Position numbers and translations under genes: made by a program
In this document: positions 20,452 through 23,094 of the stretch, piece by piece
Layout: each line of letters starts with the position of its first letter
Numbering within the stretch: position 1 is the stretch's first letter
NCBI GenBank assembly: GCA_027068975.1
Contig: JALXFN010000024.1
Span: forward strand, 1-24,620
Source: Campylobacteraceae bacterium
GTDB lineage: Bacteria > Campylobacterota > Campylobacteria > Campylobacterales > Sulfurovaceae
DNA: 24,620 nt
Reading direction: 5' to 3'
The notes under the pieces: generated by a model
What the model was told of the DNA's origin: nothing
What the model saw: only the letters and a program-made list of their open reading frames with translations
Database searches by the model: none

Positions 20452-20487
20452 ATTATAAGGGATTTTTTGGACGTATACTGTCCGATG
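20452..20487 (-). promoter_or_regulatory. tRNA-type promoter module, copy 1: -10 CTTATAAT preceded by hairpin CGGAC-N4-TACGTCCAA in the -35 region, reading into the tRNA-fragment array
   Basis: The minus strand reads CGGACagtaTACGTCCAAaaaatccCTTATAAT. This is near-identical in sequence and spacing to the module upstream of tRNA-Ser at 23058-23094. Confidence 0.5.
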
Positions 20488-20610
20488 TAAATTTAGTTTA
20501 GAAGTGGCTTCCTCAAAACATAAGAGAGCTTAAAACATATGTTTAAAATTCAATTAAAAAAGATACAATTCCTCGTTTTAAATTTATGTTTTTATATCCA
20601 TTAGATTTAC

Positions 20611-20943
20611 CTAAAAATCAAAATCATTTTTACTTAAATCACGTTTTGAAATAGTATAGCCTTGCATCACTTCATAAACTAAAACATCAGCGTCAACATT
20701 TGCTACTGATAATATATGAAGGATTTTGTCTAAACGTTCAGTAGAGTCTAGTAAAATGGAAACATTAATTTTTGTTATGAAGTCAACAGTATATTGTGCT
20801 CCACGATATCCCTCTTTATGTATATGTCCTTGACCATACTCTTTAACCTCAAATGTAGAAATTTTCTTAATGCCAATTTCTCTCAATACCTCTTTAACTT
20901 CGTCGATTTTATGTTCAAATATTAATAGTTCTAGCTTAATCAT
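20611..20943 (-). CDS. P-II (GlnB/GlnK-like) family protein, divergent: the T-loop Tyr is conserved but the B-loop Gly-rich motif is missing
   Basis: Aligns by eye with E. coli GlnB: MIKLELLIF..IDEVKEVLREIGIKKISTFEVKEYGQGHIHKEGYRGAQYTVDFITKINVSILL against [65 protein letters not shown]. There is no RTGxxGDGKIF motif. It is transcribed divergently from rtcB2. Confidence 0.55.
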   Translation of the reverse strand: MIKLELLIFEHKIDEVKEVLREIGIKKISTFEVKEYGQGHIHKEGYRGAQYTVDFITKINVSILLDSTERLDKILHILSVANVDADVLVYEVMQGYTISKRDLSKNDFDF

Positions 20944-21178
20944 ATAATTTTCTTTTTTGTTAAATTTTCTATTTTTAATTATAGCAACAATTAACTTTTA
21001 ATTTAAATGTTTAATAAAATCTTGATGATGGGATAAATTTCTCATTGGACAAAATATGACAAAAAATTACACTACCATTTAAACACTAAAACCAAAGGAA
21101 TAAAAATGAGACAAATATTAAAAGAAAATGACTTAAAAATGCAAAAACAAACAATTATAAAAACCATAGGAAATATAG

Positions 21179-22249
21179 ATGGACAAGTTAACGCTTATAG
21201 CTTCACAAAGGAACTGGATAGACAGTAGAAGTGTAGAGACATTAGAAAATATAACAAAATTTAGAGGCGTAAAAAAGGTGGTTGGTCTACCTGACCTTAG
21301 TGTAGGTAGAGTGCCAAATGGTATGGCTATTTTGGTGGAAGATAGAATCTATCCACATCTTATAGGGGGTGATATTGGCTGTGGAATGAGCCTTTTTCAA
21401 AGCCCCATAAAAAAGAGTAGGTTAAAGGTAGATAAGTTTGAGAAACGGCTTAGAAAAATAGATGATTTAGACGCAGTATCGTTAGGGCAAAAAGCCTCTA
21501 TGGGCTACAACTTAGGAACCATAGGTAAAGGAAACCATTTTGCTGAGTTCCATTTGGTTAATGAGGTAAAAAATAGAGAGTTATTTGATGCCTATTCATT
21601 AGATGAAACATCACTCTATAGCTTAATTCATAGTGGTTCACGTGCTTTTGGACAGATAGTGTTTGATGCTGTGGCAGGTCAATATGAACCTAGCCAAGGC
21701 TTAGATGTAAAGAGTAAAGAGGCACAAACGTATTTAGAAAAGCACTTTAAAGCTTTGGCTTATGCTACTCAAAGTAGAGAAGAGATTGCTAGAAAACTAC
21801 TTAAAACCATAGGTCTAAGAGATGAGTTTACAAAAGTAAGTGATACTGCACACAATAGTATTACCAAAACGCTTGATGGGTGGTTACACCGAAAAGGAGC
21901 AACTCCTACCAACAAAGGTTTGGTCATTATTGCAGGGAGTCGTGGGAGTTTGAGCTATTTGGTTCAACCAACAGCAAACACCCAAAAGTCAAACAACTCT
22001 TTGGCTCATGGAGCAGGAAGAAAGTGGGAACGAAGCTCAGCCGAAGCGAAACTAAGAAACAAGTACTCTAAAAAAGATTTAGAACGTACAAGCATAGGCT
22101 CACGCGTTCTATGTGTTGATAGTAAATTGCTTTACGAAGAAGCACCACAGGCTTACAAAAATATAGACATCGTTATAGATGATTTGGTTCAAGAGGGGTT
22201 AGCAACAGTTGTGGCTACTTTCCGTCCTATTTTAACATACAAGGAGTAG
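21179..22249 (+). CDS. rtcB2: RtcB-family RNA ligase, a short paralog of the RtcB2 type paired with PrfH
   Basis: RtcB signatures are present: GLPDLSVGRVPNG (metal-binding PDxHxG-like), GTIGKGNHFAEFH (GNHF motif), DTAHNSITKT (HN motif) and LAHGAGRK (His-GMP site region). 356 aa. AGGAAA RBS present. Followed 3 nt later by prfH. Confidence 0.75.
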   Translation: MDKLTLIASQRNWIDSRSVETLENITKFRGVKKVVGLPDLSVGRVPNGMAILVEDRIYPHLIGGDIGCGMSLFQSPIKKSRLKVDKFEKRLRKIDDLDAVSLGQKASMGYNLGTIGKGNHFAEFHLVNEVKNRELFDAYSLDETSLYSLIHSGSRAFGQIVFDAVAGQYEPSQGLDVKSKEAQTYLEKHFKALAYATQSREEIARKLLKTIGLRDEFTKVSDTAHNSITKTLDGWLHRKGATPTNKGLVIIAGSRGSLSYLVQPTANTQKSNNSLAHGAGRKWERSSAEAKLRNKYSKKDLERTSIGSRVLCVDSKLLYEEAPQAYKNIDIVIDDLVQEGLATVVATFRPILTYKE

Positions 22250-22252
22250 CCA

Positions 22253-22846
22253 ATGTTGGTACATATTAGCAGTGGCAGTGGAGTAGATGAGGTCTGTAGG
22301 GCTGTTTGGCATTTTAAAAATTGGCTAGAGAAAAACTATGAGTTTGAAGTAATAGACGAGCAGTTAGGAAGTTGTAGAAGATGTATAAAATCACTCTTAA
22401 TAGAGAGTAGTGATAAGAGACTATTAGAGCTACACGGCACACATCAATGGAGAGCCACAAGCCCATTTAGACCCAAACATAAGCGTAAAAATTGGTACTT
22501 TACCCTGCGATGTTATGGCTCAAATAACATTCATAAAATAGATGAAAAACAGGTAGTTTACCAAACGATGAGAAGCCCAAAAAAAGGTGGACAGCATGTG
22601 AATACTACATCATCAGGAGTGAGAGCCATCTACAAACCTTTGGGTATAGAAGCCGTTAGTTTCGACCATCGAAGCCAATACAGAAACAAGCAAGTAGCCT
22701 TGTTTCGCTTAATGGAAAAGTTAGAAACACTGGTAATGGAAAAAGAGTCAAATGAGACCCAAAAACGTTGGAAAGAGGGAAAAGAGATTCAGCGTGGAGA
22801 TGCTGTGTTGGTTTTTGAGGGGGAGGGGTTTGTAAAGTTAGATTGA
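22253..22846 (+). CDS. prfH: Peptide chain release factor homolog PrfH (RF-H)
   Basis: GGQ peptidyl-tRNA hydrolase motif KKGGQHVNTTSSGVRAIYKP. Length ~197 aa, with no full RF1/RF2 decoding domains. AAGGAG RBS present. Translationally coupled to rtcB2. Confidence 0.75.
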   Translation: MLVHISSGSGVDEVCRAVWHFKNWLEKNYEFEVIDEQLGSCRRCIKSLLIESSDKRLLELHGTHQWRATSPFRPKHKRKNWYFTLRCYGSNNIHKIDEKQVVYQTMRSPKKGGQHVNTTSSGVRAIYKPLGIEAVSFDHRSQYRNKQVALFRLMEKLETLVMEKESNETQKRWKEGKEIQRGDAVLVFEGEGFVKLD

Positions 22847-22947
22847 TAAGGGGGTAGATTCTTATGAATAGTAATATAAATTCAGTACTTAAGAAAATAT
22901 TGAAATTGTAAAATATATAGTTTTGGATACAATTAGTAAGCTAAAAA

Positions 22948-23041
22948 TGGAGGATAGCATGGGATTTGAACCCATGGGTCGGTATTATTAGCGACCGACA
23001 GTTTAGCAAACTGCTACCTTAAACCACTCAGTCAGCTATCC
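22948..23041 (-). tRNA. tRNA-Ser (anticodon GCT), class II with a long variable arm
   Basis: On the minus strand: acceptor GGATAGC/GCTATCC, D-arm with GTGGTTTAA loop, anticodon stem GCAGT/ACTGT with loop TTGCTAA, variable arm GTCGGTCGCTAATAATACCGAC, T-arm ATGGG-TTCAAAT-CCCAT, discriminator T, encoded CCA. Confidence 0.8.
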
Positions 23042-23057
23042 TTATTTGCTACATGAG

Positions 23058-23094
23058 TATTATAAAGTTTATATTGGACGTATTTAGTCCGTTG
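23058..23094 (-). promoter_or_regulatory. tRNA-type promoter module, copy 2 (upstream of tRNA-Ser): hairpin CGGAC-N4-TACGTCCAA then -10 TTTATAAT
   Basis: The minus strand reads CGGACtaaaTACGTCCAAtataaacTTTATAAT, ending ~17 nt before the tRNA-Ser 5' end. Confidence 0.5.

Follow-up and report, generated by a model that had tools for sequence, protein, structure and literature searches.

A Recurrent Operator-Promoter Element and the Probable RNA-Repair Regulon of a DriD-like WYL Regulator in Sulfurovum-like Bacteria

The 24,620-nucleotide (nt) contig JALXFN010000024.1 of a Campylobacteraceae bacterium, referred to here over its full length as the window, is a metagenome scaffold on which a short element, formed by a pseudo-palindrome and a -10 hexamer at a fixed distance from it, stands in front of a tRNA-Ser(GCU) gene, a tRNA-like RNA and an rtcB2-prfH gene pair. 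This element is probably the operator-promoter of an RNA-repair regulon controlled by a neighbouring DriD-like transcription regulator (17956-18879), which combines a winged helix-turn-helix (wHTH) domain with WYL and WCX domains and has homologues annotated as Sulfurovum. The evidence comes from the motif family, the constancy of its geometry, the set of its targets, the way in which it is linked to the regulator gene and the fold that the regulator adopts in a structure model.

The Repeated Element in the Window

The pattern CGGAC-N4-TACGTCCAA-N7-YTTATAAT is matched twice on the minus strand, at 20452-20484 (copy 1) and 23059-23091 (copy 2), with 0 mismatches over 33 nt and against 0.00 matches expected from 100 shuffles. 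The two copies are 76% identical over 37 nt in the repeat finder and share 25 of the 33 positions of the pattern; the direct repeat described in an initial annotation of this DNA, which had placed it at 20452-20487 and 23058-23094, is real, while the identity of its 21-nt core, given there as 17/21, is 16/21 by our own count. The same annotation had recognized only these two copies, but the core GGAC-N7-GTCC occurs three times in the window versus 0.07 expected, the third instance lying at 18894-18908, and a fourth, degenerate copy at 21045-21063 forms the rtcB2-prfH promoter; the four copies are found in two orientations. With a 20-nt matrix built from other genomes only, the window being left out, the sites score 23.6 bits (copy 2), 26.1 bits (rtcB2 site) and 26.8 bits (copy 1, whose operator reads TTGGACGTATACTGTCCGA on the plus strand).

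As initially supposed, each of the two copies is a promoter module with its -10 at a fixed distance. The TATAAT of copy 2 ends at 23059, 17 nt ahead of the intact tRNA-Ser(GCU) gene (23041-22948), and that of copy 1 ends at 20452, immediately 5' of the tRNA-like RNA. The transcription of this RNA from copy 1 is very probable, as had been proposed, but the promoter is not the 'genuine tRNA promoter' for which it was taken; it probably drives the following Band-7 gene as well. The features of the element and of the transcription units that it precedes are the following (aa, amino acids; ORF, open reading frame).

17956-18879, minus strand: wHTH-WYL-WCX transcription regulator, 307 aa (Pfam HTH_DeoR, WYL, WCX)
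18892-18917, minus strand: promoter of the regulator gene, with the -10 TATAAT at 18917-18912 and, 1 nt on, TTGGAC-N7-GTCCAA at 18910-18892
18923-20050, minus strand: SPFH/Band-7 protein gene, 375 aa (Pfam Band_7, E = 5.5e-27)
20051-20445, minus strand: conserved structured RNA ('scrambled tRNA array'), ~390 nt, 5' end predicted from the -10
20452-20484, minus strand: promoter module copy 1, with operator CGGACAGTATACGTCCAA at 20484-20467, a 9-nt spacer and the -10 TATAAT at 20457-20452
21045-21078, plus strand: rtcB2-prfH promoter module, with operator TTGGACAAAATATGACAAA at 21045-21063, a 9-nt spacer and the -10 TACCAT at 21073-21078
21106-21228, plus strand: small upstream ORF, 40 aa, with a Shine-Dalgarno sequence ahead, called as a gene
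21179-22249, plus strand: rtcB2, release-factor-H-coupled RtcB RNA ligase, 356 aa (Pfam RtcB)
22253-22846, plus strand: prfH-like release-factor homologue, 197 aa (Pfam RF-1)
22948-23041, minus strand: tRNA-Ser(GCU), 94 nt (ARAGORN; Rfam tRNA, 49.2 bits)
23059-23091, minus strand: promoter module copy 2, with operator CGGACTAAATACGTCCAA at 23091-23074, a 9-nt spacer and the -10 TATAAT at 23064-23059, before tRNA-Ser(GCU)

Conservation and Geometry of the Element

Across 122 related loci from genomes and metagenomes, the element is represented by 138 non-redundant sites scoring 18 bits or more. These loci were collected by fetching 41 genome loci around homologues of the regulator and by scanning metagenome contigs with a degenerate version of the module, a scan that added 82 further loci. 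The regular expression used as a seed had 46 matches in the 41 genome loci versus about 1 expected from our own base-composition calculation, and the matrix had 59 matches of at least 12 bits in 465 kb versus 2-8 in shuffles. Six of the 85 metagenome-scan matches (L053, L057, L074, L076, L092, L118) look like chance matches on account of their different contexts or GC-rich flanks.

The relationship between the operator and the -10 is rigid: in the genome loci, which were not selected for the presence of a -10, 45 of the 47 sites of at least 20 bits show TAnnnT exactly 27 nt from CGGAC, versus a background of 2.8% per position, the most common hexamers being TACCAT (17), TATAAT (15), TACAAT (4) and TATACT (4). 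The length of the spacer is constant, and its sequence varies among loci. The architecture read toward the target gene, wCGGACAnnATAyGwCmwn, 9 nt and TAnnAT, is the same at every target, and the operator can be summarized as a 19-bp pseudo-palindrome with the consensus wCGGACAnnATAyGwCCAA and the core GWC-N7-GTC. If the -10 is taken as positions -12 to -7, the site extends from about -40 to -22 and is centred at about -31, where a -35 would lie.

Targets of the Element

The features found downstream of the 138 sites are distributed as follows.

445-aa RtcB (Pfam RtcB): 51 sites
small upstream ORF, then rtcB2: 23 sites
Band-7-linked RNA: 20 sites
tRNA-Ser(GCU): 3 sites
regulator (WYL) gene itself: 1 site
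other or unlabelled genes: 32 sites
contig end: 8 sites

The initial annotation had considered that a motif standing upstream of many unrelated genes would be a generic promoter element and would count against its reading. This is the case in part: several different genes do carry it upstream, but they constitute one functional set. The module also precedes unidentified protein genes in L099 (~242, plus strand), L117 (~750, minus), L100 (~959, minus, and 4705, plus), L114 (~696, minus) and L020 (~4180, minus), with products such as MENYENK... and MKKNIKAYVPHPRFGNKPMNNAG..., and leader-like ORFs (MTHIFTKPNRQTQ...) come after many modules of the TACCAT type where rtcB2 does not occur within 260 nt. 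The predicted regulon is hence not limited to the four units of the window. In L047 (~3305, minus), L063 (~638, minus) and L071 (~1001, minus) the module is located before non-coding-looking sequences, one of them T-arm-like (GAGGGTTCGACTCCCTC), which could be additional small RNAs under the same control.

Linkage to the Regulator Gene

In at least 20 of the 41 genome loci rtcB2-prfH is divergent from the regulator gene, sometimes at a distance of only 132-211 bp, and the short intergenic regions between them always hold TGGTAyAAT-N6-aTGACrTATtttGTCCGA, the second part of which is the reverse complement of the 'hairpin' of the initial annotation. In these compact loci the rtcB2 -10 TACCAT overlaps, on the opposite strand, the extended -10 of the regulator transcript (TGGTACAAT), and one and the same operator therefore lies on the upstream side of the rtcB2 promoter and immediately 3' of the regulator -10. 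The rtcB2-prfH promoter of the window is homologous to the TGGTAyAAT-N6-operator arrangement of the rtcB2/WYL divergent regions in 14 loci, and its opposite strand carries TGGTAGTGTAAT, a decayed relic of the ancestral extended -10 of the regulator gene.

Although the regulator gene of the window has been relocated, the TATAAT-then-operator arrangement is kept in front of it, the site being a perfect palindrome (TTGGAC-N7-GTCCAA) downstream of the -10; the homologous site in L002, a close relative whose regulator is 98% identical, scores 20.5 bits. The TGGTAyAAT-N6-operator arrangement is present in the 900 nt upstream of 29 of 59 regulator genes. In L005, L006, L015, L017, L036 and L040 the operator-bearing promoter is separated from the regulator gene by one or two small ORFs, membrane-like, Sel1-repeat-like or possibly of a toxin-antitoxin system, and the regulator gene is then distal in the operon.

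The Regulator and Its Relatives

The winged HTH, WYL and WCX domains of the regulator are all above the Pfam cutoffs. A single-sequence search of the PDB with the regulator gave no match and profile and fold searches were needed: the best PDB profile matches are to DriD (E = 0.004-0.009), which is also the top Foldseek match (E = 4e-13), followed by PafBC, CapW and BrxR.

DriD is a WYL-domain activator of Caulobacter crescentus whose box and regulon have been described (PMC13004042, PMC10853764, PMC9186387); it binds the pseudo-palindrome ATACGAC-N7-GTCGTAT at sites that overlap the -35 position and keep a constant spacing to the -10 in promoters without a -35, and its DNA binding is switched on by single-stranded DNA in the WYL domain (PMC13004042). 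The likeness concerns both partners, because the regulator has the same domain order (wHTH, WYL, WCX) with DriD as its best structural match, and the element has the GAC-N7-GTC core and spacing (consensus kGWC-RTATnnT-GTCC) in a site that overlaps the -35 position and has a fixed spacing to the -10, likewise in promoters without a -35. When the two are aligned through the published didA construct, whose box had been engineered to contain TTGACA, and the canonical 17-bp spacer is assumed, the centre would fall at -31 in DriD too and both -10 hexamers would have the same offset. In contrast, the flanks of the element (TCGGAC...GWCCAA) differ from those of the DriD box (ATACGAC...GTCGTAT), the identity between the two regulators is only 14-18%, and the regulon consists here of RNA-repair functions (rtcB, rtcB2-prfH, tRNA-like RNA, tRNA-Ser) and not of DNA-damage genes. 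Moreover, DriD is a sensor of single-stranded DNA, whereas broken RNA is the candidate signal for the regulator described here.

PafBC is a heterodimer or a fusion protein that binds an asymmetric element. In mycobacteria this fold relative is a WYL activator acting by sigma adaptation from a site just upstream of the -10 in promoters without a -35 (PMC11804915), a likeness limited by the fact that PafBC-dependent promoters belong to a DNA-damage regulon. BrxR and CapW are members of the same fold family that bind inverted repeats at their own divergent promoters; unlike the system of the window, with its rigid site-to-(-10) geometry and RNA-repair targets, they are repressors of BREX and CBASS defence loci.

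The functional analogue is RtcR, which with sigma-54 controls rtcBA in E. coli and Salmonella, where the Salmonella operon also holds tRNA-like Y RNAs (PMC7790460): in both cases a regulator encoded beside rtcB, nucleic-acid-sensing in RtcR and by prediction here, would induce RNA repair. RtcR is a CARF-domain sigma-54 enhancer-binding protein, whereas a WYL protein and sigma-70-type -10 promoters are found here, and no RtcR, RtcA or Ro60 gene was present in the window according to the Pfam scan and gene calls.

The rtcB2-prfH Pair and the Upstream ORF

The rtcB2 and prfH genes are adjacent on the same strand. The product of rtcB2 scores 377 bits with TIGR03073 (cutoff 272), and the best NCBIfam match of the PrfH-like protein is TIGR03072, with 156 bits just below the cutoff of 167; the succession of an RtcB of this subfamily and a PrfH marginally under its cutoff is that of a predicted RtcB2-PrfH ribosome-repair module. 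The 40-aa upstream ORF overlaps the start codon of rtcB2 with an offset of one base (+1 frame), an offset that in the other genomes was hand-checked in L015 only, and an equivalent ORF rich in lysine, glutamine and asparagine is found 3' of the module in the rtcB2 loci of other genomes. This ORF could couple the translation of rtcB2-prfH to the status of the ribosome.

The tRNA-mimic RNA and the Band-7 Gene

The RNA that follows copy 1 consists of a conserved 5' domain, then tandem permuted tRNA-like units (T-arm, acceptor hairpin, D-arm), then a conserved 3' domain adjoining the ribosome-binding site of the Band-7 gene. Twenty non-redundant homologous RNAs of 340-480 nt, with one to four tandem units, are preceded by the same module and always stand directly upstream of the Band-7 gene; homologues include those of L018, L023, L026, L027, L036, L042, L056, L062, L079 and L111. 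The Rfam YrlA model matches the RNA of the window at 20375-20301 with 39 bits (E = 1.9e-5) and the tRNA model matches it at 20331-20279; in six of six other loci tested, YrlA matches of 34-42 bits are accompanied by overlapping tRNA-model matches, and the gathering score of 69 is reached neither in the window nor in these six loci.

The permuted T-arm/acceptor/D-arm tRNA mimics are the trait shared with YrlA (RF02553). The differences are the sub-threshold scores, the several tandem units within an RNA of ~400 nt and the lack of a Ro60 gene: no TROVE (Ro60/Rsr) domain was found among the contig genes around the locus or the window ORFs scanned. According to the preprint 10.1101/312249, Burroughs and Aravind predicted in 2016 a tRNA associated with band 7, the b7a-tRNA, beside RtcB and a Band-7 protein; the context reported there, a Band-7 gene with rtcB alongside, is that of the RNA after copy 1, and on the basis of this citing preprint the RNA, the tRNA-Ser(GCU) or both are probably the candidate counterpart of the b7a-tRNA. 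An SPFH gene embedded in an rtc locus has also been reported in Pseudomonas (PMC13086221).

The tRNA-Ser(GCU) and Other tRNA Genes

The tRNA-Ser(GCU) of the window has a long variable arm, the discriminator U73 and an encoded CCA. The module stands before this tRNA in three of three cases (window, L045, L121) and in three different gene arrangements; the other two genes are located at 2023-2116 (minus) of L045 and at 1657-1750 (plus) of L121, the latter back-to-back with an rtcB module. All three are 94 nt long with U73 and show compensatory stem changes among them, and the operator-linked tRNA has an A/U-rich acceptor stem; the housekeeping tRNA-Ser(UGA/GGA) of related loci has G73. In L045 an 862-aa ORF without Pfam match (2253-4841, plus) lies between the module-driven tRNA-Ser(GCU) and a module-driven 445-aa rtcB.

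The initial annotation had regarded the element as a hairpin-plus--10 promoter that might mark the tRNA genes of the organism in general, and both copies that it noted do precede a tRNA or a tRNA-like RNA. However, no matrix match of at least 14 bits is present within 80 nt upstream of any of the nine other tRNAs of the window and fetched loci, namely Arg in the window and, in the related loci, Leu (2), Gly, Cys, Ser-UGA, Ser-GGA (2) and a His-like call inside the RNA, and most instances (74 of 138 sites) precede the protein-coding rtcB or rtcB2 mRNAs. Given also the weakness of the hairpin and the fact that compensatory change was not seen in it, a generic tRNA promoter element is a very improbable explanation and was rejected.

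The Hairpin and the Inserted Island

The GGAC/GTCC stem has 4 bp and folding energies of -1.7 and -1.9 kcal/mol, with z about -1. At matrix position 5, in the middle of one half-site, A is found in 32 sites and T in 16, and the would-be partner is always T; since the middle base varies against an invariant partner, pairing is not selected. In addition, the element is upstream of the predicted start and would thus not be transcribed. A functional hairpin, as initially described, was rejected for these reasons (weak stems, no compensatory change across the family, a position upstream of the predicted start), and the repeat is better described as a pseudo-palindromic putative protein-binding site with the core G-W-C-N7-GTCC.

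The two copies had also been proposed to be att-like direct repeats around a 2.6-kb inserted island holding the P-II-like gene, rtcB2, prfH and tRNA-Ser. The P-II-like gene (20611-20943, minus strand, 110 aa, Pfam P-II) has its own sigma-70-like promoter at 21007-20978 in a promoter scan. The comparison with L002 confirms that the region varies between strains: in blastn, colinear segments correspond to 23366-23259, 23210-23145, 21016-20586 and 18945-17847 of the window, and L002 lacks two separate blocks, 21017-23144 (copy 2, tRNA-Ser, prfH, rtcB2, upstream ORF and rtcB2 operator) and 18946-20585 (copy 1, the RNA and, but for a short remnant, the Band-7 gene). The strain-variable units are whole promoter-led transcription units. 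For its part, L003 is colinear with the window over 17950-20400. In favour of an att-like reading stands this separate absence of the two blocks, with each copy near the upstream edge of one of them. Against it, the P-II-like gene and its promoter are kept in L002 though both flanking cassettes are gone, and the breakpoints (21016/21017, 23144/23145, 18945/18946, 20585/20586) do not coincide with the repeats, which fall within the blocks at distances of 50 and 98 nt from the breakpoints. A remnant of 23 nt from the end of the Band-7 frame is kept in L002, which therefore underwent a deletion and does not attest an insertion in the window. Furthermore, the copies are four in two orientations, the repeat is 5' of the tRNA and not in the tRNA 3' end, and neither the Pfam results for the scanned ORFs nor the gene calls in the block and its flanks included an integrase family. 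Taken together, these data make the att-like explanation extremely doubtful, and it was rejected.

The P-II-like gene is probably not a member of the regulon either, in view of its own promoter and of its retention when both cassettes were lost. Close to the upstream edges of the two variable blocks there is another short repeat, TAAAAACATRAA (about 20594-20577 and 23134-23117). Its copies are AT-rich, share 83% identity and stand at different distances, 110 and 43 nt, from the operators; the repeat was treated as due to chance. Elsewhere in L002, about 2.6 kb (1712-4322) between the regulator gene and a cytochrome P460 gene are absent from the window (compare 17847-17912). A near-perfect long inverted repeat (~100-nt hairpin) is found at 9920-10022 of the window between convergent or divergent ORFs; it gives spurious matches to microRNA families of Rfam on both strands and may be a bidirectional terminator or a repeat element.

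Proposed Mechanism and Alternative Explanations

In the proposed mechanism, built on the analogy with DriD, a dimer of the regulator would bind the 19-bp pseudo-palindrome centred about 31 bp upstream of the start and 9 bp from the TAnnAT -10, and would act as an activator whose DNA binding is switched on by a nucleic-acid damage signal in the WYL domain; the binding site, the activation and the ligand are thus predictions. Because of what the regulon encodes, this signal is most plausibly broken RNA and not single-stranded DNA. Four units of the window would be under the operator (tRNA-Ser(GCU); upstream ORF and rtcB2-prfH; tRNA-mimic RNA and Band-7; regulator gene), and RNA ligases, a factor for ribosome rescue, a cofactor RNA resembling tRNA and an additional serine tRNA would be induced in the response. 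The position of the operator just downstream of the regulator -10 predicts autorepression.

A broader version of this scheme is more tentative and is put forward as a possibility with less than even chances. It holds that the WYL domain senses damaged RNA, for example cleaved tRNA or rRNA ends, and that the regulator is the master activator of a dedicated RNA-damage response in Campylobacterota, with co-induction of two RtcB ligases, PrfH, the multi-unit tRNA-mimic RNA with Band-7, and a non-canonical spare U73 tRNA-Ser(GCU), which would either stand in for a tRNA lost to an anticodon nuclease or act as a cofactor of a ligase. One face-to-face pair of -10 elements would then flip between regulator synthesis and repair-gene expression.

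Some points weigh against the operator-promoter assignment and its activator. The link between the regulator and the operator is drawn from proximity and analogy, and the structure model of the regulator is of modest confidence (pLDDT 68.6). The related loci were gathered via the regulator gene or the motif itself, and the frequencies of co-occurrence are therefore biased upward. In the window, the site of the regulator promoter (18892-18910) scores less than 12 bits with the matrix, despite being a perfect palindrome. BrxR and CapW, which have the same fold, are repressors, and a site over the -35 is compatible with repression. Finally, if the tRNA-Ser(GCU) is the sole copy in the genome, a tight dependence on an inducible activator is hard to reconcile with growth.

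The alternative in which the same operator and WYL regulator work by repression, as in BrxR or CapW, with the -35/-10 of all targets occluded until a damage signal releases them, is unlikely but is the most probable of the rivals. It agrees with these fold relatives, with the overlap between the operator and core promoter DNA and with the promoter of the regulator itself, where the operator lies downstream of the -10 as repressor sites classically do. Promoters of Campylobacterota often need no -35; the -10 elements might consequently work unaided, which would also fit an essential tRNA-Ser(GCU). However, repressor sites usually tolerate variable placement, whereas the operator-to-(-10) spacing is invariant at 45 of 47 sites despite diverging spacers, the asymmetric site keeps one orientation with respect to the target -10, and DriD, as the closest relative, has this geometry too and acts as an activator. 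It is considerably less probable that the operator is bound by another transcription factor encoded elsewhere, the WYL regulator being merely a co-regulated neighbour. In favour of this, 30 of 59 regulator genes lack a same-strand site in the 900 nt upstream of them, but the core and spacing of the site are those of the DriD box, DriD is the closest solved relative of the regulator, and the tightest arrangements put the site inside the 132-211-bp divergent region between the regulator gene and rtcB2.

Significance

To our knowledge, RNA-damage sensing and the induction of RNA repair in bacteria are understood for only one regulator, RtcR, and we know of no description of the control of rtcB2-prfH; literature searches found no description of a WYL-controlled RNA-repair regulon. 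The type of WYL regulator and operator is already known, and the RNA-repair regulon as its target set appears to be new within the literature searched. The locus, with its precisely delimited 19-bp operator, rigid promoter geometry and obvious candidate for the regulator, would represent a second control circuit unrelated to RtcR, in which one predicted regulator unites RtcB, PrfH, the Band-7 protein and tRNA-like RNAs, earlier linked by gene neighbourhood alone, and an atypical, predicted inducible tRNA-Ser(GCU) joins that set. If this is true, the DriD/PafBC type of WYL activator would be extended from DNA-damage to RNA-damage responses.

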